Assembly: GCA_964636275.1 (NCBI GenBank)
Contig: CAZWRN010000001.1
Location: 22,070-86,069, forward strand
DNA: 64,000 nucleotides
Origin: an uncultured Gammaproteobacteria bacterium
GTDB taxonomy: Bacteria; Patescibacteriota; Microgenomatia; Daviesbacterales; UBA10151
Direction of reading: 5' to 3'
In this document: piece after piece, positions 1,596 to 18,303 of the stretch
Layout: the number at the start of each line of letters is the position of its first letter
Position numbering within the stretch: the first letter of the stretch is position 1
Made by a program: the position numbers and the translations under genes
Notes under the pieces: model-generated
The model's input: the letters and a program-made list of their open reading frames with translations, nothing else
Database searches by the model: none
What the model was told of the DNA's origin: nothing

Positions 1596-1654
1596 ACTAA
1601 GTAATATAACGCCATTTTTTTGCTTTCTAGAGTATCTTATAGTATAATATAGGC

Positions 1655-2719
1655 ATGTTTAATTCTAGTTTAAATTGCCTAAAAACCTCTCTAACCGGTC
1701 TAATTTTGTCCGGAGTTATATTTAGTGTTTTCGCTTATCCAATCCAGATATCGGCGGATAGTATTACATGGGAACCGGGATACGAAAGTACTTTTGAGAG
1801 TGGCTCAACCCCTACCCCAGCCAACCCCCAAGGTCAAAACTGGATATTTAATCCTATCCGCCAGGTTGGACAAAATACTCAGTTTGGAGGCTATGATCCA
1901 ATTCGAACTGTCGGCAACAACTCAACATTTAATACATATGAGCCGATCAGAACTGTTGGCAATAACTCCACTTTCAATACTTATGAACCGATTCGGACTG
2001 TAGGACAGACCACCACTTTTGGCAGTTACGAACCAATTCGTGCTGTGGGACAAAATACTCAATTTGGAACCTACGACCCTATTAGACGGGTTGGTCAGGC
2101 GACTCGATTTGGGTCCTATGATCCTATTAGACAAGTAGGTCAAAATACCTCATTTGGCGCTTACGATCCAATCCGCCAGGTTGGACAGAATACTCAGTTT
2201 GGAAATTATGATCCTATCCGCCAGGTTGGACAAAATACTCAGTTTGGAAATTATGATCCGATCAGAACTGTCGGACAATCAACCAGTTTTTCAAGCTATG
2301 ACCCCATCCGCCGTGTAGGTCAAAATACCTCATTTGGCGCTTACGATCCAATCCGCCAGGTTGGACAGAATACTCAGTTTGGAAATTATGATCCGATCAA
2401 AACTGTGGGACAAAATAACGCAGCGCCGGCTTACAACCCGATTGTGATACCAAATCTGGAAAACAATCCATATCGATACAATGCTATTCAGGTGCCAAAT
2501 ACTGGTAACTCGGGTGTGACGTACAATCAACCGGTGGTTCCAGCTGCTGGAAGCAATAACCCGGCTTACAACCAACCATTAATTCCACCTACTGGAAATA
2601 GTTCTACGACTTATAATCAGCCGGTCGTCCCCACAGCTTCGACACAGCCCCAGGTAATTGTGGTTGATCCTTCAACATATAGTAGTATTCGTGAACTACC
2701 TAAAACAGGCCTTCGCTAA
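1655..2719 (+). CDS. Secreted tandem-repeat protein (about 13 x 16-aa YDPIRxVGQNTxFGx units) with a C-terminal LPKTG
   Basis: N-terminal signal/TM segment; highly regular 48-nt repeats in the sequence; Pro/Asn-rich tail ending ELPKTGLR; embedded within the pilin paralog array. Confidence 0.6.
   Translation: MFNSSLNCLKTSLTGLILSGVIFSVFAYPIQISADSITWEPGYESTFESGSTPTPANPQGQNWIFNPIRQVGQNTQFGGYDPIRTVGNNSTFNTYEPIRTVGNNSTFNTYEPIRTVGQTTTFGSYEPIRAVGQNTQFGTYDPIRRVGQATRFGSYDPIRQVGQNTSFGAYDPIRQVGQNTQFGNYDPIRQVGQNTQFGNYDPIRTVGQSTSFSSYDPIRRVGQNTSFGAYDPIRQVGQNTQFGNYDPIKTVGQNNAAPAYNPIVIPNLENNPYRYNAIQVPNTGNSGVTYNQPVVPAAGSNNPAYNQPLIPPTGNSSTTYNQPVVPTASTQPQVIVVDPSTYSSIRELPKTGLR
1850..2445 (+). repeat. In-frame tandem 48-bp repeat array inside the CDS
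   Basis: Near-identical units, e.g. gatccaatccgccaggttggacagaatactcagtttggaaattatgat recurs at about 2164, 2212 and 2347; the larger block 2112-2215 is duplicated at 2300-2397. Confidence 0.85.
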
Positions 2720-2748
2720 TCTCGAGGTATTGACAAGGTTGTTTCTTC

Positions 2749-3165
2749 ATGATTATGATTAATTCAATCATGAAAAAGCTTTCTGCCGCTTTTGCTTCTG
2801 TCGCTGGATATTTCACATTAGCTTCTTCTGCTTTGGCACTTCAAGTAAACACACCAACTAATATGGGTATTGATCCAAAGACAGCTCCTAGTACTATTTT
2901 GACAAGCGCTTTAACTATCGTTTATATCGTTGCAGCACTGCTTGTTCTCTATTTTTTGATCATGGGAGCTTTTAAATGGATCACCTCTGGTGGTGACAAA
3001 GATGCTATCGGAAAAGCTCGCGGCGCTATCATAAATGCTTTGATTGGTCTGGCTATATTAGCTTTGGCTGTAGTGATAGTCATAGTTGTTGGAAAGATCT
3101 TGAATATTAATATTTTGGGCAACTTCACTATCCCCAACCTGATGGGTACTGCAACCGACATTTAA
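2749..3165 (+). CDS. Small secreted double-TM pilin-like protein, paralog 5
   Basis: Signal peptide; loop MGAFKWITSGGDKDAIGKARGA between two TM helices. Confidence 0.5.
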   Translation: MIMINSIMKKLSAAFASVAGYFTLASSALALQVNTPTNMGIDPKTAPSTILTSALTIVYIVAALLVLYFLIMGAFKWITSGGDKDAIGKARGAIINALIGLAILALAVVIVIVVGKILNINILGNFTIPNLMGTATDI

Positions 3166-3320
3166 TGTCGGTAAATTCTAAGCACTAAATCCTAAACTCG
3201 AGATAAATCTAATACATAAATTCTAAATACAAAACTATTTTTGAAATTGTTATTTTGATATTTGAATTTGTCTAGAATTTAGGATTTCGATATTAGAGTT
3301 TATTATGTTACTCTTATTAC

Positions 3321-3635
3321 ATGAGTCCTACTCCTTCGATAAACTTAGGTCCTGAACCGGCAGGAATTGCCCAACTTGAGCAGCTTTTCTCCCGCATAGT
3401 TTATTTATCTGCTGGGATAGCATTTATGGCACTCACAGTAATGTTGGTATATGCAGCAATCAGATTTCTTACCTCTGGTGGAGACAAGAAAACGATCCAA
3501 TCAACCTGGGCTGTTATCACTTGGGCATTTCTAGGAATTTTTTTCATGGGTCTAGCCTGGGCTATTCTTCTTTTAGTAAAAAGCTTTACCGGTGTGGATG
3601 TTCTAAATTTTAGACTTGCATTCCCCCAGACTTAA
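3321..3635 (+). CDS. Small double-TM pilin-like protein, paralog 6 (divergent, no obvious cleavable signal)
   Basis: Loop IRFLTSGGDKKTIQSTW between two hydrophobic helices; same family motif SGGDK. Confidence 0.45.
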   Translation: MSPTPSINLGPEPAGIAQLEQLFSRIVYLSAGIAFMALTVMLVYAAIRFLTSGGDKKTIQSTWAVITWAFLGIFFMGLAWAILLLVKSFTGVDVLNFRLAFPQT

Positions 3636-3672: not shown

Positions 3673-5184
3673 ATGCCTTTTATATCCCGAAAATTCTTTT
3701 TCAATTTTAAATCTAAAGTATGCCTGATATTTACATTGGGTCTTTTTATTTTTGGTAGCTGTGCGACCCCAGCGCTAGCTCAAAATAGCCCCGCATCAAC
3801 TCAATCTACGCAACAAGTTTTAAATTCACTTTTAAACTCATTTGCCGGCTGTATGATTATCGGACAAAGCCTGATTGAAACAGAAGAGTGTCCTACCCAG
3901 TCAGGCTCTCAAAGCTCTAACCATCCAAATAGCGGGATGGGGCTGGTCGGTAAGGCTATTTCATTGACCTACAATCCTCCTCTTTCCACTCAGGCCTATC
4001 TGGCAGACGTTAAAGAGAGTTTGGGCTTTGCCAAACCGGCTTATGCCCAATCTGTGACAGGCACAGGTGAGAGTGTAATTGCTCCTGTTAAAAAACTCTG
4101 GCAGATAACACGAAATTTCTCTTATCTGATTTTTACCTTGATATTTGTAGGTATAGGCGTGATGATCATGCTGCGGCGAAAACTAAATCCGCAAACAGTA
4201 CTAAGTGTTCAAAGCGCTTTGCCAGGGCTGGTGATAGGGCTGATATTGATCACATTTAGCTATCTGATTGCCGCTTTGATAGTTGATTTGTCTTTCTTAC
4301 TAATTCCGCTTGTCGCAAGTGTTTTTGAGCAGGCTGGAGGGAATATTTTCAAGGAAAATGGTCAGACTTTGCAGGATTTCGCTCTAAATTCGACAGTCTT
4401 CTCTTTTTTTAAACCGGTTTTTTGGAATCATCCAAACTGGCCATTGGATCTTGATCTTTTGAAAGGAACCCCTCCGGGGTCTGTTACTAGAGAGCAGTTT
4501 TCAATCCCCAACTTAATCCCATATCTTATCCAATTGGCTATTGATGCTGTTCTGGGTCTGGGTAATTTATTGATAATGGTAATCGTTGTCATCGGATTGT
4601 TTTTTCAGATGATTCGTTTACTATGGATAATTTTGAGATCCTATATCTCTATTTTAGTTTTTACTGTTTTGGGACCATTATTGATTTTAATGTCCACAAT
4701 ACCAGGTCGTGGAAAATCAGTCGAATTTTGGTGGAGAAATCTACTAGGAAACGCTTTAATCTTTCCGGCTATATTTGCAGCCTTCTTTTTTGGGGGGATG
4801 ATCTTGTCGGATACTGGTGTGGATCAAAACGCTTTTAACCAGACATTGCCGCTATTTGCCGGTATACCTGTTTATCTGTTAAAATATGTTATAGGATTTG
4901 CCATTATATTGGGCGTTCCTGCGGTACCACAAATGGTTAAAGAAACAATCGGAGTCAAGGATATTAAAGGAATCCCAGAAGCCGCCATGGCTGGCTTTGG
5001 TGCGGGAGTTGGACCAATGCAACAGGGTTTAAAACAAGCCTACAAACCATTTGAAACAGAAAGACAAGCATTTAGAGAAGCAAAAATGCGTTCGATGTTC
5101 CCATCCGACAAAACAACTTTTGATACCATGATGGCAAGTAAATCTTCACGGCCTCGCTGGTACACTCGTTGGTTTAATAAATAG
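3673..5184 (+). CDS. Polytopic membrane protein, VirB6/TrbL-like candidate
   Basis: 503 aa; signal peptide, about 130-aa extracytoplasmic domain, then 5-6 TM helices and a charged C-terminal tail; positioned directly after the pilin array as in T4SS loci; no motif-level proof. Confidence 0.4.
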   Translation: MPFISRKFFFNFKSKVCLIFTLGLFIFGSCATPALAQNSPASTQSTQQVLNSLLNSFAGCMIIGQSLIETEECPTQSGSQSSNHPNSGMGLVGKAISLTYNPPLSTQAYLADVKESLGFAKPAYAQSVTGTGESVIAPVKKLWQITRNFSYLIFTLIFVGIGVMIMLRRKLNPQTVLSVQSALPGLVIGLILITFSYLIAALIVDLSFLLIPLVASVFEQAGGNIFKENGQTLQDFALNSTVFSFFKPVFWNHPNWPLDLDLLKGTPPGSVTREQFSIPNLIPYLIQLAIDAVLGLGNLLIMVIVVIGLFFQMIRLLWIILRSYISILVFTVLGPLLILMSTIPGRGKSVEFWWRNLLGNALIFPAIFAAFFFGGMILSDTGVDQNAFNQTLPLFAGIPVYLLKYVIGFAIILGVPAVPQMVKETIGVKDIKGIPEAAMAGFGAGVGPMQQGLKQAYKPFETERQAFREAKMRSMFPSDKTTFDTMMASKSSRPRWYTRWFNK

Positions 5185-5197
5185 AATACTGAGTGCT

Positions 5198-8119
5198 TCA
5201 ACCTTTTACAAATGCCTGCATTGTAGCCGCTAGCTGCTTTAAAACGCCTTCCAAAAATCCGCTAAAAAGACCTCTTTTATTGGTTTTCTCATACAGATCC
5301 CTCATAAATTGATATAAATCATTACCCAAATACTCCCTATTTAGTCGTTCGGACTCATGGTGAGCTACCATATGTGATAATGTCAATTTTCTGTTTAATA
5401 ATTCTAGTTGATTCCAATTTAGATTATTGAAATCATATTTCTCAGAATGCTTAGTCCGGAATTCAAAAATTCCTCTGGCGAGAGAACCTATAAATTCGTT
5501 CAACTCGTTTGCGCCATGGTGGTCATCAAACTCAGTTAAAGCTAATGAAGCTTTGAAAAACTCTCCCAAGGTTTTTATAATCTGGTCTGGTGTTTCCATA
5601 GCATGAAAATCATAGAGTAGTCTTGGCCCAGATTTATCAAACATGCCCTGGACTTTTTCCATGGCATTCCAGCGGCCGGTATTATATTTGATTCGATTGA
5701 AAAAACGGTCCCATTCTTCGGCCAGCTGAGCATTTGTTCCCAACTGGAAAAACTGCTGAATTGTAACTGTATTTACATAGCCATATTTTCTTAGCTCCTT
5801 AAAGCGACCTGGATTTAACTCACCGTCATTCCAATAATCAGCTGGCTTATGATGAAGCTTTTTCTTGTCTCGCGCTCCTCTTCCACCAATTGATGCATTA
5901 AAATCGATCAAATGGGCGTATCTCTCATAGATCATTCGCTGATGATCTGCCCAGGCTTTGGCTAATTCACCACTTCTTTCCCTGGCCAATTTCTGAGCAA
6001 TCTTTTTTCTTTTCTTCACTTCGGGTGTGTCATTTGGTGACTCGGGCATCATATCTTGAGCCAAATGGAGTGTGATTTTGTTTCCTGAAAACATTTTTTT
6101 GCTACCAGTTTCAGGGTCAATTTCTCTTGTGTCATCGTCATACCATTCAAAAACCGGATCAAAAACAACAGCATCTCCGGCGACGTTTTCATAGCCGAAT
6201 TGCTCAATTCCTCCTTTTAATTCTTCTGGTATTGCTACGCCTTTTTTCCACTTTAGACCATCAAAATCAGCTGACTGACCAGAAGCATGATGGATCTTTT
6301 CGGCAATCACAAAGGCTCGATTGAGATGTCCAAAGACCTGTTCAATATCCTCAAGGTGAATATTACTTAGTGTATCAGGATCTAAATTTTCAACTTCAGC
6401 GCTCTTGAGATTGCGCTCCAGTACGAATTTGGCCTTTTTTGCCTCATGCACTTTCTCTAATTCAGGCTTTATTTCCTCTCTTAGTGCTGGTGTTAATTCA
6501 TTTCTTAACTCGGCAATTCTCTCCTGCCGCTCTTCATCGGTGTAAGCCGGTTTCCCTTCCAGATTTCTGCGAGCATTTTCCTCGTTGATTTTACTTGCTG
6601 TTCTAGCTGGTAAAGCTTCTTCTACTTTTTCCTTTAGTTCAATGGGGAACTGATCTGCAATTTCCCTTGTATAGGCAAAATATTCTGAAATAGTTTTCGT
6701 TACTATTTTTTTACCTGAAGCATCCATTAATAATTTTGCTTTTTCAGGATTTCCTTCCTCTCCTTCTTGTTTTATTCTATTTATTGCACGATGAGCTGAA
6801 TGATACTTATCAAGTGCATCACTGGTAATCATATAATTCATTCCATGAATCATTAATCCTCTATATTTTGTTCTTGCAGCTTCTACTTTTTTCTTTGCTT
6901 CATTTATATCAATTGACTGGTAGTACTTTTTGAGAGCTTGATCATATTGATATTCCTGAAAAACACCTTCATCAGAGTAGAATTTAGTTTTATCGGGAAA
7001 GTCGGTCAATCCCGCAATCTTAAATACATCCGTCATCCCTAAGAAATCTTTTGGTTTTTTATCTTCTCCAACTCCAAAATCATCCCACATTTGATCGATC
7101 AGTTTGATTTTTTGTCTGAGTGTCCAGGTATCTTCTTTTTCTTTATTAGTTAAATTTGCTCCATCAACAATTTTATTTACCAGATTCTGATCTTTTATAC
7201 CTTCATCTTTGACCCGGTAATAATGGCCTCTGGCTCTTGATGGGGTATCTGCATCATCATTCCAACCTTCAAGTAAATCTGATGCCTGCTGGACACCGGC
7301 CTCTCTCATTAATGCTTTTAAATGTCGTCCACGGATATTGGTAATACCACTACCCCATTGTTCACATTTCAAATATTTTGCTGCAAACGCCACATTGTGA
7401 GTGATCTGCCGAGCCTCAATCCAGTTGGAGATCTCAGATCGAAAAGATTCATACTGGGGCTCAGCAAAGACCACGTTTATATATTGCAACATCTCACCAA
7501 CACCTGGAGCCTCACCAGCCTCATCAATGTCAAGAGTTGCTAAAATATTATTTACACGTTGTCTCAATTTACCAAATTGGCGATTTTGTTTATAGTATTC
7601 AAGCTCCTGATAAATATTGTAAAAAGATTGTTCTCTTCCCTCATTGGCCACTGACTCTCTATACGCATCTACTTCAGCTTGGGGAAACCCTTTTGCGGCA
7701 TTTTGATCACGATCCCATTGTTTTTTTTCCTCTTCTCCCCGCATCGGATCAGGCGGAGTTTCTGGAGTTACATTGTCCTCAGGTCGGTGATGTCCAGAGG
7801 TTTCTGCTGATTCATCTGTATCCTCTGCGCCCCCTGCTACTCTAAAAATAGGTTTGCCTGATCTGGTAAAAAGTGTTCCTGGTGGATAATCGGCTGGATT
7901 GGGTTTTTCAGTATTTTTAGGATTTTCTGCACTGCTACGTTTTTGCCCGGTTGCCCATCCTTCGGTTCCTGGCCAAATAGGACGGCCCTTTTCAGTAAAT
8001 TTTGTTCCTGGTGGATAAGGTGACTTTTTTTCAAAATCAGAAGGCTTACTCCCTGAAGGAGCACTTTCGGGTCCTGTTCCTGGTGGTGTACCATCGGCCA
8101 TATTTTTGTCAAAGGCCAT
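5198..8119 (-). CDS. Large (973 aa) hydrophilic acidic protein of unknown function
   Basis: Long uninterrupted ORF with no TM; N-terminal duplicated motif YPPGTKFTEKGRPIWPG / YPPGTLFTRSGKPIFRV; lysine/glutamate-rich; no recognisable catalytic motif. Confidence 0.6.
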   Translation of the reverse strand: MAFDKNMADGTPPGTGPESAPSGSKPSDFEKKSPYPPGTKFTEKGRPIWPGTEGWATGQKRSSAENPKNTEKPNPADYPPGTLFTRSGKPIFRVAGGAEDTDESAETSGHHRPEDNVTPETPPDPMRGEEEKKQWDRDQNAAKGFPQAEVDAYRESVANEGREQSFYNIYQELEYYKQNRQFGKLRQRVNNILATLDIDEAGEAPGVGEMLQYINVVFAEPQYESFRSEISNWIEARQITHNVAFAAKYLKCEQWGSGITNIRGRHLKALMREAGVQQASDLLEGWNDDADTPSRARGHYYRVKDEGIKDQNLVNKIVDGANLTNKEKEDTWTLRQKIKLIDQMWDDFGVGEDKKPKDFLGMTDVFKIAGLTDFPDKTKFYSDEGVFQEYQYDQALKKYYQSIDINEAKKKVEAARTKYRGLMIHGMNYMITSDALDKYHSAHRAINRIKQEGEEGNPEKAKLLMDASGKKIVTKTISEYFAYTREIADQFPIELKEKVEEALPARTASKINEENARRNLEGKPAYTDEERQERIAELRNELTPALREEIKPELEKVHEAKKAKFVLERNLKSAEVENLDPDTLSNIHLEDIEQVFGHLNRAFVIAEKIHHASGQSADFDGLKWKKGVAIPEELKGGIEQFGYENVAGDAVVFDPVFEWYDDDTREIDPETGSKKMFSGNKITLHLAQDMMPESPNDTPEVKKRKKIAQKLARERSGELAKAWADHQRMIYERYAHLIDFNASIGGRGARDKKKLHHKPADYWNDGELNPGRFKELRKYGYVNTVTIQQFFQLGTNAQLAEEWDRFFNRIKYNTGRWNAMEKVQGMFDKSGPRLLYDFHAMETPDQIIKTLGEFFKASLALTEFDDHHGANELNEFIGSLARGIFEFRTKHSEKYDFNNLNWNQLELLNRKLTLSHMVAHHESERLNREYLGNDLYQFMRDLYEKTNKRGLFSGFLEGVLKQLAATMQAFVKG

Positions 8120-8288: not shown

Positions 8289-9704
8289 TTGGGTCAGACG
8301 TATGATACTCTTATATATATGACCGGACCGGAGACTGCAGAACGCAATCACAATCGAGATATCCTCATGATGCAGATCCGCAATCCAGCTACACGGGAGA
8401 CCCTCAAAAGGGAGATACCAGCGGATTCAAGGGTGGATTATTCTGGAGGAGGATCTAGGAATGAAACTCTCAGTGCGCTGGCTACTTTAGCGCGAGTTGA
8501 AAAAGGTGATATATATAAATATATTTTGGGAATAGCCACAGTAGCTGAGTCCCCTGATCAGCTGGCTAATGCATTTGGAGCTATTAGAGCTTTGGCCGAT
8601 TGGAAAAATAGCGGGAAAGATCGAGCTGGTACGATAGCAGCAGCCCAAAAAGATTTTCTATCCCGTTCTTCACCACCTATGCATATCACTGATGAGGCAA
8701 AAGATCTAATAAGAATTTTTAAGTCTGCTTGGGACCAATCTCGAGGTGATGAACGCTTTGCAATACGAAGTATTCGAAGCACACTTATGAGTCGCCAAGG
8801 TGAAGCTCAAAGAAATTACGAAAATCATTTTGCCGAAGCTTATTTAGCTAGTATTATGGATGATTCATTACCCGAAGGGCTTCGGCAAGCCGTGTTGAAT
8901 AGTGGGTATATGTTTGACTTGGGATCCCCTCCTTATTTAAATGAAAATGAACGTCGATTTGATACTAGAGCCAGTTTTTGGACCCAAGCCAAGCCAGCCT
9001 GGGTTTTCCCAGAGATTTTTGGATCGGGGACACGTCCGGAAGATCGTTTAGATCCAAAAGATGCAGAAATTGTCAATTTAAAAAAAGAGATAGATAGGCT
9101 TCGTCGACGTCCACCAGCAGCCGATCCAGCACAAGAAGCGCGATTCCGAGCTACAGAAAGAGAAAATACGACTCTAAAAGGACAGCGGGATCGTTTGACT
9201 AAAGAAAATAATGATTTAATAAATATGAATAATCAGCTTAGAACTAAAATTGCTGAACTAGAACGTCTTCGCGGAGCTGCCCCCTCACCCGATGCTTCTC
9301 GAAGAATAAGTGAGCTAATGATGCAGGTGCAGCAACTAGAAGCAGATAAAAAATCACTCCAAGAATCTAATCGTCAAAAGGACACTGACTTAAGACGCGA
9401 AAGGGATGCAAGAGCCGCGGCAGAAAGAGAAGCCGCCAGAGCCAGAGCCGACCGTCGGTCAGGCAGACCCTCTCCATTTGAAGTTTTAGGGATAACTGAC
9501 CGTTTGGCCTGGGATCGAGCTGACATGGCTGGGAAGAGACGGATTTTAGACCTTGCTAGTCGGCCACTACGTATGAAGTATCATACCGATATGCATGTAG
9601 AAGCAGCGAAAAATCCTGTAATTAAGGAGTTATTGGATCGTGAGCTGGTAAAAATAAACTTAGCAGTGGAAGAGCTGGAGAAACAGGCGGGTCTAAGAAA
9701 ATAG
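8289..9704 (+). CDS. Coiled-coil protein with a C-terminal J-domain-like module (HTD variant of HPD)
   Basis: The C-terminus PFEVLGITDRLAWDRADMAGKRRILDLASRPLRMKYHTDMHVEAAKNPVIKELLDRELVKI fits the J-domain pattern (YxxLGv..a..eIkkaYr.l..kyHPD); the central region is heptad-like and charged. Confidence 0.5.
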   Translation: MGQTYDTLIYMTGPETAERNHNRDILMMQIRNPATRETLKREIPADSRVDYSGGGSRNETLSALATLARVEKGDIYKYILGIATVAESPDQLANAFGAIRALADWKNSGKDRAGTIAAAQKDFLSRSSPPMHITDEAKDLIRIFKSAWDQSRGDERFAIRSIRSTLMSRQGEAQRNYENHFAEAYLASIMDDSLPEGLRQAVLNSGYMFDLGSPPYLNENERRFDTRASFWTQAKPAWVFPEIFGSGTRPEDRLDPKDAEIVNLKKEIDRLRRRPPAADPAQEARFRATERENTTLKGQRDRLTKENNDLINMNNQLRTKIAELERLRGAAPSPDASRRISELMMQVQQLEADKKSLQESNRQKDTDLRRERDARAAAEREAARARADRRSGRPSPFEVLGITDRLAWDRADMAGKRRILDLASRPLRMKYHTDMHVEAAKNPVIKELLDRELVKINLAVEELEKQAGLRK

Positions 9705-9742
9705 CTTTGACATTTGTTTTTGAATGTGACAACAATTGATTT

Positions 9743-10081
9743 ATGCATCAGACAATTCATCAATACAGAGAGCAGATCCTGCAAAAAACATATGACGTCA
9801 TGACCCAGGCTGTTGAAAATGGGACACTCCAAGAAGAAGACATCTCACCAATGGCAGATTTTATTTTAGAGAGAGTTGATAAACTCACCACATATGATCA
9901 GGTAATCGGTTTTTTTCATTTACTAGCTTTGAAATGGCCTATCTTCTCCTCTTTATCTGTCGAAACAGAGGGTAAGCTGCAGGAAAAAGTTGAATCTCAT
10001 GTAAGAGATAGTATGTTATCATTGATAAAGGAAGGAAAGGTTGACGAAGCTGTCCAAATAGGACAGGCTTTGCATAAATAA
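9743..10081 (+). CDS. Hypothetical small protein
   Basis: 112-aa ORF tightly linked (1-nt gap) to the downstream gene. Confidence 0.4.
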   Translation: MHQTIHQYREQILQKTYDVMTQAVENGTLQEEDISPMADFILERVDKLTTYDQVIGFFHLLALKWPIFSSLSVETEGKLQEKVESHVRDSMLSLIKEGKVDEAVQIGQALHK

Positions 10082-11920
10082 ATGGCGATTGATTCAAGAG
10101 AAGCTGGTGCAGCATTTGCAGCCGGAGCTCAACCAGAATTAACAAAAACAAAGCGAGCGGGTACTTTTCGTTCCCGTGATTTTGAAGACCGTTCTCGTAG
10201 ACTTGCTCAAAAAGATGCAGTAGGGGCTCGTGAGGCTTGGAGGAGGGAAACAGATAATAAAATAAAAAAGGACGCTCGAATACAAGCTGTAGATTCAAAT
10301 ATTGGCTTTGATGCTAAACGTGATGCGGGAGGTAAAAGAGAATCTACTGGCGATGCTCGTCTCGATAACCAGATTCAAAGAACTGAACAATTGTTTGATA
10401 TTGCTCAAAATATTTCAGAAATGGGCGATTTTTCCAAAATTGAAGCAGAATTTGACCGCCTCGGACTGACTGATATAGTAATCAAACAATATGACAAAAT
10501 CCCCCAGCTCAAACCAATTGCCGATATTTTAAAAGATACTAATACGGCTACTCGGCTTCCCGATGCTCAAAGAAAAGAATTGATTCGTCATCTAGTTGCT
10601 GACCACGATTTTGCTAAACATATGATGGATCGGCTTAAACCACTGATGAAGGAAGGTGTTGTACCTGACTATAATTTACCTGAGATGAGAAAAAAACTGG
10701 CTGAGCTTCAAAAAGAGATGACCGATTTAAATCTAAAAGAAGAGCAGTATCTAGCTCAGAAAAGTGTGTATGTGACAGGAATTACGGATCTCTCTGGGGA
10801 TCCCAACCGAAATATTGAAATTAAAAGAGCTCAAGATTTTATAGATAAGGCCAAGAAAGGCAATGATACTGTCTTCAATAAAGTTGATAAGTATATTGAT
10901 CTCAGAAATAAACGGGCATATTTTGAACATATGAAGTTAAAAGCTACCACCCCTGCTGAAAAAAACGAATGGCAAAGCAAATATGATGCTCTAACTACTG
11001 ATTTTACTAACCTTGATGCTGACCCCCAAATTGTTGCCTCTCGGGGAGCTACTCCTACTGGAATAGCCGATACGATTAAAAACTATATTATTTCCAGAGA
11101 TACTATTGATCTAACCGAAGGTTCTGAATGGACAGATCCGACTGGAAGAAAAGCTACTGAAACAGCCCGACTCACTACGGAAATCGCGGCTCAAAATACA
11201 AAGATTACTGACGCTCAAACAAAGAGAACTCAGGATGAAAATGAATATGTTATAAAAGTTAGGGACGCAATTGGGGAGTCAGCCTACGACACTTTAATCG
11301 GTCGAATGGATGCTAACATGGCTTATATTCAAAAAGAAATTAAGGAATCTGCTGGAGGAGAAATGGGGAAACAATTAAATCGTATCCTTACCAGAGAGGG
11401 CCTGTTTGGAGAAACAGCAGATAGAGGAAAAATCCAAAGTTATTTTAATACTCTGATAGAGTCTGGTGAGGAGGCTGCTATCGATCGGATGAACCTTGAT
11501 CCTGAATTTCAGGAAGAAGTTCTAAATAATCCTGATCTAAAAGCCAAATTTAATGAAACTATTTTATATAATGCGATGAAGTATGGGGGTTTGCGTCGAG
11601 AAAATTTAGACCGAATTATGAATCTTCCCTGGGGGGAAAAGGCTATTAATGATGCACTTAGACGAAATAGTGAGCTGGTTAAATTTGAAGAACAAATGAA
11701 ACAAGCTGGTTTTATGAAAGGCGGAATGGTTGAGTGGTTGAGAAGCGGTAAAAATAAAAACTTAATTGCAGCAGTTATCACAGCTCTTTTAACGGGTGTC
11801 GGTGCTGCCACAGTGGTTGGTCTGGCTTCCATTCCTGCTGCAGGACTGGCTGGTGTGGCGGCTGTGGGTGGAGGAATGATAGGCGGAATGGGGGCAAATA
11901 GACTTGGTGAAGCTGCTTAA
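10082..11920 (+). CDS. Large coiled-coil protein with a C-terminal glycine-zipper transmembrane anchor
   Basis: 612 aa, mostly hydrophilic and charged; C-terminal LIAAVITALLTGVGAATVVGLASIPAAGLAGVAAVGGGMIGGMGANRLG. Confidence 0.55.
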   Translation: MAIDSREAGAAFAAGAQPELTKTKRAGTFRSRDFEDRSRRLAQKDAVGAREAWRRETDNKIKKDARIQAVDSNIGFDAKRDAGGKRESTGDARLDNQIQRTEQLFDIAQNISEMGDFSKIEAEFDRLGLTDIVIKQYDKIPQLKPIADILKDTNTATRLPDAQRKELIRHLVADHDFAKHMMDRLKPLMKEGVVPDYNLPEMRKKLAELQKEMTDLNLKEEQYLAQKSVYVTGITDLSGDPNRNIEIKRAQDFIDKAKKGNDTVFNKVDKYIDLRNKRAYFEHMKLKATTPAEKNEWQSKYDALTTDFTNLDADPQIVASRGATPTGIADTIKNYIISRDTIDLTEGSEWTDPTGRKATETARLTTEIAAQNTKITDAQTKRTQDENEYVIKVRDAIGESAYDTLIGRMDANMAYIQKEIKESAGGEMGKQLNRILTREGLFGETADRGKIQSYFNTLIESGEEAAIDRMNLDPEFQEEVLNNPDLKAKFNETILYNAMKYGGLRRENLDRIMNLPWGEKAINDALRRNSELVKFEEQMKQAGFMKGGMVEWLRSGKNKNLIAAVITALLTGVGAATVVGLASIPAAGLAGVAAVGGGMIGGMGANRLGEAA

Positions 11921-11922
11921 AT

Positions 11923-13371
11923 TTATTCCGGATAACATCTAATACAATATCCACACTCCCCAAAATCACTTCCTCCACAATCATCACATTTTGTTTTTTT
12001 AGTACGTGATCTGCTCATTCTATCAACTCCCCAGCCTCCACCACTAAACTGTGTGAAATTGCGGAGAGAATCGGTGATCCTTTGTGTGACTCCTTCTACC
12101 CTACCGGAGCCACTACCTTTACCCCATGTTCCACAGAAAGCGCCAGTGTTGGCTTTCATAGCAGCCAGGGCTTTCAGATCGACCTGATTTTCCTCGACTA
12201 TATCGGCTGAATCTATCCTATGTTGATCTGACTTTTTAAGCATTCTTTCTAGCTTGATATTTTCGATAGTATTTTGGGTTTCTTGGATATATTTATCTTT
12301 GATGTGATCCTGGATCCAATCAGTGGAAATACCTTTTTCAAGCAGATTTACTACCCAATGCGCCACAATGGTCGAAGCTTCATCTTCTAGCCTTTGGCGC
12401 AAAGTCGGATCTTGAACAGCTAGGAACGTTTTCTGATCGATGCCAAACATAGTGCTGCTACCGTCAACCTCAGCTTTAACTTTAAACATCCTCTGATAAA
12501 TCTCATTGTGCGTTAGTGTCCCTTCTTTCATGATACTGGTTCGCATCACTCGGTCGACATCGACGGTCTGAGCAGTTGAATGTTTGCCAAGTCCAGCAAA
12601 GAACTCTTGGCCCTGTAGTTCACGCATGAACTTTTGATACGCCTCAGTGCTCATATCATTTTTGTATGAGTGCATCACCATTTTGCGAATACCCGCCACC
12701 TCAGTAATCTCTCCAACATAGAGATAGCCATATTCACCGTTGTATTTATGTATCATCTCCCCTTCTGATTCTTTGGCTATTGGACTGCCCCAGACCAACG
12801 TATGGGTTTTGGAGGCATTAAAGAATTTGTCAAAATTGGTAAATAGATACTCATTTTGAGTCATGGAGGCCAGGTCATTTTCTCTTCGCCATCCAGTCAG
12901 CGCTTCGGTGACGCTCCGACCAATATAAGCATGCTCAGGGCTGACCATTTTACGGCTGGTGACTCTTTGGCCAGTCGCCTCATCGACGGATTCTTCTTGA
13001 TGTAGCAGATAGGTGTTTTGGGTTGGCGTAATCTGCATCCGAGCTCGAGATTCTAGATCAAAAAAGGTTTTCCCACCCTGAGATAAAGCGGAGATATTTT
13101 CCTGCATCAGGGCTACACCATCTTTTTTGATAGCTTCAAAGGTATAGCGTTTAGCTAATTCTTGGTTACCACCGGATTTTTGGAGATGTTCCTGGTAAAG
13201 CTGAAGATACAAAGAGACATCACATACGAGTAGTTCACCATCACGTTGCTTCAAGGCTTTGCTGACAGACTCCATGCCAAGAGGAGAATTTATGGTGATG
13301 GATCCCCGCCTGCGCGAGGATGCGGGATATAATGAACGACTTTCTGTTCTTTTATCTAATAATGCTGGCAT
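11923..13371 (-). CDS. Hypothetical protein with a C-terminal Cys-cluster (zinc-ribbon-like)
   Basis: 482 aa ending CDDCGGSDFGECGYCIRCYPE; convergent with the upstream gene with a 2-nt gap. Confidence 0.55.
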   Translation of the reverse strand: MPALLDKRTESRSLYPASSRRRGSITINSPLGMESVSKALKQRDGELLVCDVSLYLQLYQEHLQKSGGNQELAKRYTFEAIKKDGVALMQENISALSQGGKTFFDLESRARMQITPTQNTYLLHQEESVDEATGQRVTSRKMVSPEHAYIGRSVTEALTGWRRENDLASMTQNEYLFTNFDKFFNASKTHTLVWGSPIAKESEGEMIHKYNGEYGYLYVGEITEVAGIRKMVMHSYKNDMSTEAYQKFMRELQGQEFFAGLGKHSTAQTVDVDRVMRTSIMKEGTLTHNEIYQRMFKVKAEVDGSSTMFGIDQKTFLAVQDPTLRQRLEDEASTIVAHWVVNLLEKGISTDWIQDHIKDKYIQETQNTIENIKLERMLKKSDQHRIDSADIVEENQVDLKALAAMKANTGAFCGTWGKGSGSGRVEGVTQRITDSLRNFTQFSGGGWGVDRMSRSRTKKTKCDDCGGSDFGECGYCIRCYPE

Positions 13372-15193: not shown

Positions 15194-15997
15194 ATGAGTG
15201 CAACGCAAGATTTTTTACCAGTAGAAGACATCCGCGATGATGTAGTGGTGATGAAAGATGGCTCAATGGCGATCGTACTACAAACATCAGCCGTCAATTT
15301 TGATCTACTTTCTGAAACAGAGCAGTTAGCAATTATTGGATCATTTGCAGCTCTTTTAAATTCCCTCTCTTTTTCAATCCAAATAGTAATCCGCTCAAAA
15401 AGACTCGACATATCCAACTACATTCATCTGCTGAAGGATGCCGAGGCTTTGCAAAAAAATCCGCTATTACAAGCGATGATGCAACATTACCGGCAATTTG
15501 TCACCAATATTATTCGAAATAACGAGGTGCTGGATAAACAGTTTTTTGTGGTCATATCAGTTTCTTATTTAGAACTTGGGGTGGTGAAAGATGTGAATAA
15601 AAACTTTGAGAAAGGATTAACCCTACTCTCTCCCAGACGGGATCATATCATGCGTCAGTTGGGGAGGATTGGTCTTAAAACAACCCAGCTGAATACTGAT
15701 AAACTGATAGCGCTTTTTTATGACTATTACAACGATACTTTTAAATCCAGTTTCAAATCAGCTGGGGCTTCATCAAAAACAACGGCTCCATCGCCAACAC
15801 CACCTGCAGTTGCCCCCCAGCCAGTCAAACCGTCCCAGACACCAACAATCACGCAAATGGCGCCAGCTCCCCAGCCCGCACCAGTACAACCAGTATCTCA
15901 GCCAATAACCAATCCGGCTCCACAGACACAGCCTAAACCAGCGGGAGTCCCTCTCAATCGCAATGTGCCATTTGCTGTGGAGGAGTTGGGAGCCTAA
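15194..15997 (+). CDS. VirB4/TrbE N-terminal domain as a separate ORF with a Pro-rich tail (split VirB4 or pseudogene fragment)
   Basis: LPVEDIRDDVVVMKDGSMAIVLQTSAVNFDLLSETEQLAIIGSFAALLNSL parallels the VirB4 N-terminus (LPY..HL.D.IVLLEDGSI..I.RV.GV.FEL.E..E...); the tail is APSPTPPAVAPQP...; the start is 1 nt after the upstream stop. Confidence 0.5.
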   Translation: MSATQDFLPVEDIRDDVVVMKDGSMAIVLQTSAVNFDLLSETEQLAIIGSFAALLNSLSFSIQIVIRSKRLDISNYIHLLKDAEALQKNPLLQAMMQHYRQFVTNIIRNNEVLDKQFFVVISVSYLELGVVKDVNKNFEKGLTLLSPRRDHIMRQLGRIGLKTTQLNTDKLIALFYDYYNDTFKSSFKSAGASSKTTAPSPTPPAVAPQPVKPSQTPTITQMAPAPQPAPVQPVSQPITNPAPQTQPKPAGVPLNRNVPFAVEELGA

Positions 15998-16086
15998 AGA
16001 ATAAACCAATAAACAAATAACCCAATGTCAAATTCCCAATTATTGAGAATTTGTTTATTTGAATATTGGATTATTTGTATATTTAT
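15998..16086. repeat. CCAAT-rich imperfect palindromic element (copy A), between the VirB4 N-terminal ORF and the VirB4 ATPase ORF
   Basis: aataaaCCAATaaacaaataaCCCAATgtcaaattCCCAATtattgagaatttgtttatttgaatATTGGattatttgtatattt; related copies at 24414-24470, 24581-24629 and 25086-25165. Confidence 0.7.
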
Positions 16087-16089
16087 AGT

Positions 16090-17880
16090 ATGAACTTACC
16101 TTTTAGCAGTAATAAAAAAAGTTATGCGTCAAATATTAAAGGGACTGCGGCTGAAGCACCGAAAGATCCTAGTGTGAATGGACAAACTTTTAGTTTAGAT
16201 GACGCCATTGCTCCCAAAGAGATCGAAATTGATTTTAGTTATCTACGAATGGATGACAAATACTACCGATCTTTTTTCGTCTCAGGTTATCCCCGCTATG
16301 TTGAACCAAACTGGCTTGAGCCGCTGATTAGTTTTGAACACTCACTAACTCTATCGATGTTTATTTATCCATCATCCAGTAAGAATATTTTGGATGATCT
16401 GAAAAGAAAGATCGCCGAGATGGAGGCTACTATTCAGACAGATATGGAGCGTGGCCGAGCAATAGATCCGGCTGTTCAGGTTGCTTTGGATGATGCTAAA
16501 TCACTCCAAGAACAGTTGGTTAAAGGGGCCGAAAGGTTTTTCCGGCTAGGACTTTATGTCACAGTCCCCTCTTCCAATCTTGAAGAGTTAAACAATATTT
16601 CCAAACTTGTTGAATCAACATTGGGATCTTTATCTATTCAACCTCGGGTGATGACCCTTCAGATGGCTGAAGCTTTTAACGCCACAATGCCGATCGATCG
16701 GGATATTTTAAAGCTCAATCACAACATGGACACAACATCCCTAGCGACAACTTTCCCGTTTACAACTTCAGAGCTGACTTCAGAAACGGGTATTATTTAT
16801 GGCATCAATGAACACAATGGCTCTTTGATTATTTTTGACCGTTTTTCATTGGAAAATGCTAATTCGGTGATTTTTGCTAAGTCCGGATCTGGTAAGTCCT
16901 ACTTTGTCAAACTCGAGGCTTTACGCTATATGATGTTTGGTTCGCAGGTGATTGTGATTGATCCTGAACATGAATATTTAAAGCTCTGTCAGGCTGTGGG
17001 AGGGCAATATATAGATTTTTCATCAGAGTCTCCGGTCAAGATAAATCCCTTTGATCTATCCAATGTCACAGAAGAGGGAGAAAATGAGCTGGGAAGAAAG
17101 ATTCTGACACTTACCGGATTTTTAAAACTCGTCTTGGGCCAGTTGGACGCTTCTCAGCAGGCAATTTTAGACCGGGCTTTGATTACAACGTATCGCCTCA
17201 AAGGAATAACCCAGGACCCAAAAACACAACATTTACCGCCACCATTAATGGAAGATCTCTATAAAGTACTGGTGGGTATGGAAGACAAAAGTGCCCAGGA
17301 GCTGGCTTATCGCCTAGAACGATTTATTAAAGGATCATTAGCTGGTATTTTTAGTGCTCCCTCTAATATTAACTTGAACAATCAGCTGATTGTTTTTTCG
17401 GTTCGTGATTTGGCAGATCAGTTGAGGCCTCTGGCGATGTATCTGATATTGGATTATATCTGGACCAAGATCAGACGAGAGATCTCCAAAAGATTGCTGA
17501 TCGTAGATGAGGCCTGGTACATGATGCAAAATGAGGATTCAGCTGAATTTTTGGTAGGTATAGCCAAAAGAGCCCGCAAATATTATTTAGGAGTTACTAC
17601 AATTACCCAGGATGTGGAAGACTTTTTAGGAACAGATCGTGGAAAGGCGATTATATCCAACTCTTCGATTCAGATATTACTTAAACAAGCTCCGGCCTCT
17701 ATTGGAAAAGTAGCTGAAACTTTTAATTTATCTGATGGGGAAAAATTGTTGTTGCTCTCAGCTGGAGTAGGACAAGGACTCTTCTTTGCCGGACAAACCC
17801 ATGTCGCGATGAGTGTAGTTGCTTCTCCAGAAGAACATCGACTGATCACCACCAATCCGTCTGAAGTGTTTAAGAAATAA
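16090..17880 (+). CDS. Type IV secretion ATPase, VirB4/TrbE/CagE family
   Basis: Walker A VIFAKSGSGKSYFVK, Walker B LLIVDEAWYMM, upstream GYPRYVEPNWLEPLI signature of the CagE_TrbE_VirB domain; start chosen at MNLPF (16090) because the track start lies inside the repeat element. Confidence 0.8.
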   Translation: MNLPFSSNKKSYASNIKGTAAEAPKDPSVNGQTFSLDDAIAPKEIEIDFSYLRMDDKYYRSFFVSGYPRYVEPNWLEPLISFEHSLTLSMFIYPSSSKNILDDLKRKIAEMEATIQTDMERGRAIDPAVQVALDDAKSLQEQLVKGAERFFRLGLYVTVPSSNLEELNNISKLVESTLGSLSIQPRVMTLQMAEAFNATMPIDRDILKLNHNMDTTSLATTFPFTTSELTSETGIIYGINEHNGSLIIFDRFSLENANSVIFAKSGSGKSYFVKLEALRYMMFGSQVIVIDPEHEYLKLCQAVGGQYIDFSSESPVKINPFDLSNVTEEGENELGRKILTLTGFLKLVLGQLDASQQAILDRALITTYRLKGITQDPKTQHLPPPLMEDLYKVLVGMEDKSAQELAYRLERFIKGSLAGIFSAPSNINLNNQLIVFSVRDLADQLRPLAMYLILDYIWTKIRREISKRLLIVDEAWYMMQNEDSAEFLVGIAKRARKYYLGVTTITQDVEDFLGTDRGKAIISNSSIQILLKQAPASIGKVAETFNLSDGEKLLLLSAGVGQGLFFAGQTHVAMSVVASPEEHRLITTNPSEVFKK

Positions 17881-17940: not shown

Positions 17941-18303
17941 TTAGTAACTTTTCCATTTATCTCTTAAATTTACAATCTTTCCTCCCACTAACTCATATCG
18001 CTTAATTAGTTCGCTACATTTCTCTTGATCTAGATACTTCAAATCTTTTGCTATATTTAAATGTACTTCCATCTCATTACAGGATCCCAATGCTCTATCT
18101 AGTGATACCTTGAATTCTTTCTCAAAGCGTCTTTTCGCCCATCCTTCAGCAATATTTGCAGGAGGAGACTTAGTACATCTTCTCATTTGAGAAGCCAGAT
18201 CATTCTTTTCAAAAGATGGAAGCAATACACACAACTTCATTACTTCGATAGCCAACTCATAACATTCTTTATATACATCTAAATCCTTGAAGCTCTGAAT
18301 CAT
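17941..18303 (-). CDS. Four-helix-bundle protein (23S rRNA intervening-sequence protein family)
   Basis: FKDLDVYKECYELAIEV...LPSFEKNDLASQMRRCTKSPPANIAEGWAKRRFEKEFKVSLDRALGSCNEMEVHLNIA matches the family pattern (DL.VW.kA..L......LP..E...L..Q.rRaa.Si..NIAEG..R...keF..fL.iA.GS..E....L). Confidence 0.65.
   Translation of the reverse strand: MIQSFKDLDVYKECYELAIEVMKLCVLLPSFEKNDLASQMRRCTKSPPANIAEGWAKRRFEKEFKVSLDRALGSCNEMEVHLNIAKDLKYLDQEKCSELIKRYELVGGKIVNLRDKWKSY

Follow-up and report, generated by a model that had tools for sequence, protein, structure and literature searches.

What does a predicted secreted repeat protein do in the middle of an array of pilin genes? The question is raised by an open reading frame (ORF) at 1655..2719 on the + strand of a 64,000-nucleotide (nt) stretch of contig CAZWRN010000001.1 (assembly GCA_964636275.1), which is referred to in its entirety as the window. 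Non-pilin genes occur inside the arrays of VirB2-like pilin genes of Patescibacteria, where they were not characterised and where adhesins such as PrgB were reported as undetected (Quinonero-Coronel et al. 2025; PMC12102498). The repeat gene is one of these uncharacterised array genes. Epibiotic growth of a Saccharibacterium requires its type IV secretion system (T4SS), its pilins and several adhesins (PMC10633639), and in the one species tested the epibiotic lifestyle cannot do without the patescibacterial T4SS and pilin arrays. The reading favored here, at a probability of about one half, is that the product of the gene is an elongated, beta-rich repeat protein, exported by the Sec pathway, that serves as an accessory surface stalk or fibre, or as a host-contact adhesin, of a Patescibacteria-type T4SS/pilin apparatus. 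The published survey associated no adhesins with Patescibacteria T4SSs, and the gene is a lineage-specific candidate for an accessory surface component that combines a repeat stalk under protein-level selection, evidence of module shuffling and a sortase-type motif without a retention tail.

A predicted secreted repeat protein in the pilin array

The ORF is complete and encodes 354 residues followed by a TAA stop, as both the ORF list and the sequence confirm for the limits given by the original prediction. The first 34 residues (MFNSSLNCLKTSLTGLILSGVIFSVFAYPIQISA, followed by D; 1655..1756, +) are predicted by inspection to form a Sec signal peptide, with a hydrophobic core followed by I-S-A. 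The mature protein would begin with a short non-repeat segment (residues 35-64; 1757..1846, +). Between the signal-peptide-like N-terminus and the C-terminal tail, the whole protein holds 18 in-phase units of 15 residues. Thirteen of these are type-A units (W1-W13; 1847..2431, +) with the consensus YDPIRxVGQNTxFGx, and five are Pro/Asn-rich units in the same 15-residue register (2432..2656, +; residues 260-334 of the translation).

Relatives are few. A word-indexed protein search with the window protein gave no matches, and the same search with its longer homologue, P0001, returned only P0001 itself. An exhaustive HMMER search gave 105 matches, among which P0001 (683 residues, E = 3e-65) is the one true homologue. 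The other matches, about 100 in number, are long repeat proteins with a 15-residue period, some of them eukaryotic; their E-values were not counted as evidence of homology, given that periodicity inflates them and that eukaryotic repeats score as well. A genome scan added a syntenic locus, L001, that encodes an ortholog of 285 residues. Scans of metagenome contigs with the repeat alignment and with an alignment of the VirB6-like protein encoded further downstream found nothing, nor did a scan of viral contigs.

A signal-peptide-like N-terminus is present in all three homologues (the window protein, the L001 ortholog and P0001), which supports the earlier claim of secretion, with predicted Sec export. 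The segment that follows is poorly conserved, with 33% identity to L001 and 38% to P0001. In all three lineages the repeat gene lies 3' of genes for T4SS_pilin (PF18895). In the window, six flanking genes match this Pfam family, five of the six above the curated cut-off, and they stand on both sides of the repeat gene, so that the position inside a pilin array, proposed from the window alone, holds with synteny in three lineages. The repeat protein itself matches neither pilin profile (PF18895 or PF04956) and is a non-pilin insert in the array.

P0001 is encoded in L002, immediately 3' of three pilin genes. It has the same type of signal peptide, about 10 units, a cap unit and a Ser/Thr-rich linker, followed by about 340 residues without a known family. 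The presence of this further part after the linker makes the repeats an N-terminal stalk module in P0001. The protein encoded by the gene after P0001 (L002 3418-4242, cut by the contig end) matches phrog_10356, a family of phage "virion structural protein" (E = 3e-13), such that in this lineage the slot after the repeat protein carries a cargo different from the pilin found there in the window.

Age of the repeat array and selection on it

The original prediction described about 13 near-perfect repeats of 48 nt or 16 residues in a recently expanded array. The count of 13 stands: units anchored on the invariant P-I-[RK] follow one another exactly 15 residues apart over nt 1847-2431. The period does not, as Tandem Repeats Finder gives 45 nt or 15 residues (scores 130-336), and the consensus quoted with the prediction has 15 letters. 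Nor are the repeats near-perfect, given that unit pairs mostly share 21-34 of 45 nt and that for most units DNA identity is only about 55-70%. The only close pairs are W8 and W12 (45/45), W9 (42/45) and the pair W7 and W11 (38/45).

The nearly identical blocks that had been noticed are real and contain an 80-nt exact duplicate. Its first copy (2135..2214, +) covers the end of W7, W8 and the start of W9, and its second (2315..2394, +) the end of W11, W12 and the start of W13. The offset between the copies is 180 nt, or four units. Recent expansion thus applies to only one four-unit block, and elsewhere in the array synonymous differences have reached saturation. When all pairs of W1-W13 are compared, 30.5% of codons match exactly, 36% show a synonymous difference and 33% encode another amino acid. 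At the invariant positions P3, I4, V7 and G8 (Pro, Ile, Val and Gly), every available codon is used. Synonymous divergence at these four positions shows that this frame is translated, that purifying selection acts on it and that the array is old. The array as a whole is therefore old and held by protein-level selection, and only the 80-nt duplicate is recent.

The same pattern bears on whether the ORF might be an artefact, either a spurious frame arising from a repeat at the DNA level or a misassembled array. Several overlapping spurious ORFs do occur in other frames, and the short-read contigs of five other samples (L003, L006, L008, L009 and L011) all end within the array, which makes the copy number in any assembly uncertain. 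The balance of synonymous and non-synonymous change is, however, particular to the annotated frame, and the ORF is unbroken in three divergent lineages. The window is also 100% identical to the independent contigs L003 and L004 on both flanks of the array and 98.4-99.1% identical to L008, L009 and L011, and W1-W6 have collinear counterparts in units 1-6 of L009. An artefact is therefore highly improbable. The gene is recovered in the independent assemblies L003, L006, L008, L009 and L011, and the ORF is a real, selected coding sequence. Read-through or a frameshift past the stop was considered and rejected; the TAA is kept in four assemblies, and the downstream frame reads only SRGIDKVVSS before the next stop.

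Copy number and mosaicism

The array was also predicted to vary in length between strains. Between lineages it does, with 13 type-A units in the window, 9 in L001 and about 10 in P0001; between close strains the copy number cannot be read, because short-read contigs break inside the array. The L001 ortholog, the closest relative, differs from the window protein in a defined way. Units W3-W8 of the window pair with A3-A8 of L001, W13 pairs with A9, and W14 equals A10, such that the units missing from L001 are exactly W9-W12, which lie between the two 80-nt copies. In the Pro/Asn-rich region L001 is one unit shorter than the window, with two rather than three YNQP units, and the tail IRELPKTGLR is identical. 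The gene thus has what marks a surface protein with variable in-frame repeats, namely unit numbers that differ (13 vs 9 vs about 10) and a missing block (W9-W12) that is bounded by exact 80-nt repeats. Unequal recombination between the few units that are still identical would add or remove blocks of units.

Such change would not amount to the contingency-style variation that had been proposed. Given that the units are 45 nt long and in frame, on/off switching is impossible, and changes affect length rather than expression state. Contingency loci carry hypermutable simple repeats that shift the frame or the promoter spacing, and the array has none of these; the 80-nt repeat is its sole long substrate for recombination. 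The repeat gene is not a contingency locus.

Streptococcal Alp/Rib-type proteins are surface proteins with variable numbers of in-frame repeats, which are nearly identical in DNA across the whole array. The window protein resembles them in its in-frame units, in a copy number that varies between relatives and in the gain or loss of blocks between identical copies. It differs from them in that its units are mostly only about 55-70% identical, and only the one 80-nt repeat can drive change.

Traces of exchange extend beyond unit number. In L009, which is 98.4% identical to the window, unit 7 is a hybrid of W7 and W9, a patch of the gene-conversion type. L001 2595-3314 and L002 1-720 are 100% identical over 720 nt of the upstream pilin genes, after which identity falls to about 70%. 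L001 (about 4500-5400) and window 2380-3340 are about 87-100% identical, in a block that covers the 3' end of the repeat gene, pilin 5 and the intergenic spacer, and their flanks are about 60-70% identical. Within the protein, the N-terminal part of L001 has 64% identity to P0001 vs 33% to the window, and its last four units and tail are 96-97% identical to the window. The pilin locus thus shows sharp mosaic blocks. Either recombination between lineages reassorts N- and C-terminal modules, with the array as the joint, or L001 is a co-assembly chimera. Under the first of these, recombination in the array would join different N- and C-terminal modules as well as change the number of units. The L001 record (CAYOMO010000042.1) is titled "uncultured Gammaproteobacteria bacterium" yet carries the PF18895 array and the T4SS genes of the window; it is probably mis-binned or mislabelled.

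Predicted fold

A single-sequence AlphaFold model of the repeat protein has a predicted local distance difference test (pLDDT) score of 50.8. The repeats reach 55-70, with two short beta-strands per unit, and the Pro-rich C-terminus is disordered, with scores below 50 from residue 253 on. A second model was built from an in-register alignment of the window protein, P0001 and 14 Bacteroidota repeat fragments, and shows the same regular pattern of two strands per unit (pLDDT 58.6; predicted template modelling score 0.41). In a Foldseek search of the PDB all top matches are beta-helices or solenoids (GlmU, LpxA/D and tapirin), the best with E = 0.014 and a template modelling (TM) score of about 0.17. 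From these models, the best guess for the repeat domain is a solenoid-like rod, in which each 15-residue unit would form one strand-turn-strand rung and the whole would be roughly 6-9 nm long. The five Pro/Asn-rich units that follow (in order, YNPIVIPNLENNPYR, YNAIQVPNTGNSGVT, YNQPVVPAAGSNNPA, YNQPLIPPTGNSSTT and YNQPVVPTASTQPQV) are predicted to be disordered or extended and resemble a wall-spanning spacer.

Beta-solenoids with one short rung per repeat include insect antifreeze proteins, the ice-nucleation protein and the curli protein CsgA. The window protein is like them in its short, regular units, in its conserved Gly, Asn/Gln and aromatic positions and in the predicted strand-turn-strand of each unit; it differs in that there is no sequence relationship and that the matches to left-handed beta-helices are weak (E 0.014 or worse).

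The Bacteroidota-type proteins among the HMMER matches (P0002-P0044) share with the window protein the 15-residue period, one consistent HMMER register and the pattern aromatic-Gly-x-Tyr-x-x-Ile/Leu-x-x-x-Gly. Identity is, however, 21-28%, and the window protein has neither the S74 nor the "FNFVVYKK" domain nor any shared flanking domain. Homology to these proteins is unproven, given that unrelated eukaryotic 15-residue repeats also score. P0002-P0044 form in their own right a large, apparently unclassified Bacteroidota-type family of long proteins with repeats of the form [YF]GxYxx[IL]xxxGxGxx; the C-terminus is a Peptidase_S74 tail-fibre chaperone domain in some of them and a conserved "...FNFVVYKK" domain in others, and none of the five that were scanned has a Pfam match to the repeat.

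Proposed role

The genes around the repeat gene suggest which apparatus the protein would serve. Downstream lie genes for a VirB6-like protein, PrgI/VirB3, a TraC-like protein and a VirB4 P-loop ATPase, a DUF11 protein and a C39-like peptidase, and further on, at 23-28 kilobases (kb), dnaN, dnaA and yidC. This gene content points to a Patescibacteria-type, MPF-FATA-like T4SS near dnaA. The arrays of the published survey likewise have divergent PF18895 pilins beside PrgI/VirB3, TrsD-like and VirB4, and VirB6-like genes, close to dnaA and dnaN (PMC12102498); the window differs from them in the rarity of its insert, a repeat protein known from three lineages only.

The array also contains a pilin fused to an extracellular domain. 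L008 and L009, which overlap the window start, add three further pilin-domain genes upstream. One of them (L008 2277-3587) encodes a 436-residue protein with a signal peptide, a large Cys-containing extracellular N-terminal domain and a C-terminal PF18895 pilin domain; its counterpart in L001 (218-1201) has 327 residues. With extracellular and pilin domains in one polypeptide, the 436-residue protein is a "decorated pilin" at the start of the array. A ClpB/ClpC-like gene lies 5' of it.

In Gram-positive bacteria, conjugative T4SSs employ LPxTG adhesins, of which PrgB is an example (PMC12857230). The window protein has the same order of parts as the LPXTG repeat adhesins, including PrgB of pCF10, that is, a signal peptide, tandem repeats, a Pro-rich spacer and a C-terminal LPxTG, and it shares with PrgB the association with a monoderm-type (MPF-FATA-like) T4SS. 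It differs from these adhesins in having no hydrophobic or charged tail, no match to an anchor model and no sortase nearby. In addition, a Pfam scan finds in the repeat protein no PrgB-type adhesin domain and no other Pfam domain, which sets it apart from the PrgB type. By analogy, the repeat protein would nevertheless work like a Gram-positive repeat surface protein, and a role as a host-contact fibre is plausible.

Alternatively, the protein could be non-structural, either a T4SS substrate or effector or an independent solenoid that binds host glycans or cell walls, with its place in the array reflecting co-expression only. The conserved Tyr and Phe at fixed spacing may resemble those of ligand-binding beta-hairpin repeats. 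Moreover, the patescibacterial T4SS has no relaxase and has been proposed to export proteins (PMC10633639; PMC12102498). This alternative is nonetheless unlikely, given that the protein starts with a predicted Sec-type signal peptide, a feature not usual in T4SS substrates, and that an enzymatic or toxin domain was not detected in it. The arrangement of P0001, with the repeats as an N-terminal module before another domain, also suits a stalk better.

Several findings weigh against the proposed role of the protein as an accessory stalk, fibre or adhesin of the apparatus. Homology searches assign no function to the protein. Scans of Pfam and NCBIfam give no family at E <= 0.01, and sequence searches of the PDB with the window protein and with the C-terminal part of P0001 are negative even with E relaxed to 1 and 10; PHROGs gives a single weak, repeat-driven match to a family of unknown function. 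The repeat is thus a previously unclassified 15-residue type without a Pfam, NCBIfam or PDB entry. Confidence in the structure is low (pLDDT 51 and 59 for the two models; Foldseek E = 0.014 and TM about 0.17), and the alignment behind the second model is dominated by Bacteroidota repeat proteins that are possibly not homologous. Among about 15 billion proteins, only three lineages have the family, so it is no general component of T4SSs, and its narrow distribution restricts the general importance of the protein. The assignment to Patescibacteria rests on gene content, and the L001 record is labelled Gammaproteobacteria. In L001, which comes from a metagenome co-assembly, misassembly across the 80-nt repeat could have produced the mosaic as well as the loss of four units, the latter by a collapse. 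The C-terminus adds further points of this kind. LPxTG is absent from the longer homologue P0001; the window protein has neither the hydrophobic segment nor the positively charged tail of a sorting signal; and no sortase, by Pfam or by the TLxTC motif, is encoded in the 64-kb window, and none among the L008 genes in the 4.4 kb upstream.

The LPKTG terminus

The protein ends in a tail, IVVDPSTYSSIRELPKTGLR (2657..2716, +), that is near-identical or identical in L001, L003 and L006. The last residues are ...SSIRELPKTGLR, followed by TAA, and a hydrophobic tail is absent. The LPKTG pentapeptide (residues 348-352; 2696..2710, +) is followed by only Leu-Arg-TAA in four assemblies, which bears out the original description of a sortase-like motif without the usual hydrophobic and charged tail.

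In some respects the terminus looks like a sorting signal. A signal peptide (by inspection) and an LPxTG near the C-terminus are both present, and a Pro-rich spacer precedes the motif, as in wall-anchored proteins of Gram-positive bacteria. In the window and across all the other loci compared, LPKTG is the only C-terminal motif of its type. For about 55 proteins, the chance expectation of an LPxTG in the last 10 residues of any of them is about 0.006. Among the ELPKTGLR codons of the window, L006 and L001 there are three substitutions, all of them synonymous, and zero non-synonymous changes, and the residues just upstream do change (STYSS vs SPYSN). This conservation is weak evidence, however, given that all three variants lie within one high-similarity block.

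In other respects the sorting signal is incomplete. Scans of Pfam and NCBIfam give no match to a curated anchor profile (Gram_pos_anchor or the NCBIfam LPXTG anchor), and a scan for hydrophobic tails did not flag the repeat ORF. No other protein with a sorting signal is encoded in the window or in the 4.4 kb upstream. The signal peptide of the downstream pilin was considered as a displaced sorting tail and rejected, as it belongs to a complete PF18895 pilin. The repeat protein lacks the feature that defines sortase-anchored proteins. The Pro-rich spacer and LPKTG may still act, or may recently have acted, as an attachment signal of the sortase type, but any attachment must take a non-canonical route, as there is no membrane-retention tail.

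LPKTG could instead be vestigial or coincidental, with the protein secreted and then released or held non-covalently, and with no sortase involved. The protein might then be a matrix or fibre protein, or bind cell-wall or host polymers through its repeats. The missing hydrophobic segment and charged tail, the unmatched Pfam and NCBIfam anchor models and the lack of a sortase in about 68 kb around the gene all fit this explanation, as does P0001, which is entirely without the motif; moreover, only one window protein has a C-terminal motif of this type. It accounts less well for a canonical layout, with a Pro-rich spacer and then LPxTG at the extreme C-terminus, for a motif that at this position is expected by chance only about 0.006 times, and for tail codons that change only synonymously while the adjacent upstream residues vary. 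Sortases have in addition been reported in Microgenomates, in that one is encoded in a Microgenomates genome (PMC7143001). Taken jointly, these vestigial or coincidental versions are possible but rather unlikely.

At the other extreme, the tail-less LPKTG would be a working ligation handle, through which a sortase-like transpeptidase joins Thr351 of the stalk either with a VirB2-like pilin or with the wall at the base of the pilus. This is very doubtful. If it were true, the handle would provide in trans the architecture of extracellular domain plus pilin that is also encoded in cis, by the 436-residue fusion in L008/L009 and the 327-residue fusion in L001. The product would be a T4SS pilus decorated by a sortase, with the array as a recombination joint for swapping tips. 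To our knowledge, a sortase-decorated T4SS pilus has not been described in any bacterium. Sortase-mediated coupling of a stalk to a pilin would be remarkable, and nothing in the analysis demonstrates it.

Neighboring genes and other features of the locus

Upstream of the repeat gene lie four VirB2-like pilin genes of PF18895 (14-286, which is cut by the window start, 288-743, 740-1147 and 1131-1595, all +), and downstream lie two more (2749-3165 and 3321-3635, both +). A polytopic membrane protein in the VirB6/TrbL position (3673..5184, +), with a weak TrbC match, closes the pilin block. It is kept in L001 at 52% identity, and its topology and position suggest that it is VirB6-like.

The repeat gene has no Shine-Dalgarno sequence at normal spacing. 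A TATAAT hexamer, read from the sequence 6 nt 5' of its ATG (1643..1648, +), could be a -10 element of its own, possibly for a leaderless transcript; it is not listed by the promoter scan because its -35 match is poor. Of the promoter-like sites in the region, the best, TTGACA-18-TATGAT (11/12; window 2730-2759), lies between the stop codon of the repeat gene and the pilin ORF. It overlaps the first ATG of that pilin, which may therefore start at ATG 2770 (MKKLSAAF...) with a nearly leaderless transcript.

Immediately 3' of the VirB6-like gene, a large, highly charged protein without a Pfam or NCBIfam family is encoded on the opposite strand both in the window (5198-8119, -; 973 residues) and in L001 (7483-10233, -; 916 residues). 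Three more proteins without a family are encoded at window 8289-13371. VirB4 function is split between a 267-residue protein with weak similarity to the TraC N-terminus (15194-15997) and a 604-residue protein with a TraG/VirB4 P-loop (16066-17880), and the two match the pair of TrsD and VirB4 described for Patescibacteria (PMC12102498). Inside the T4SS/pilin cluster there is also a gene for a 23S rRNA intervening-sequence protein, a four-helix bundle of PF05635 (window 17941-18303, -). A gene of the same type, judged from its sequence only, occurs in L001 at a different position (1262-1621, -).

Scans of the window for tRNA genes and Rfam families found nothing. Up to about 24 kb, GC skew is either mixed or negative; from there to the end it is positive in all but one 2-kb interval, regardless of gene orientation. 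The turning point adjoins dnaN/dnaA (23.3-26.8 kb), which is consistent with a replication origin there.

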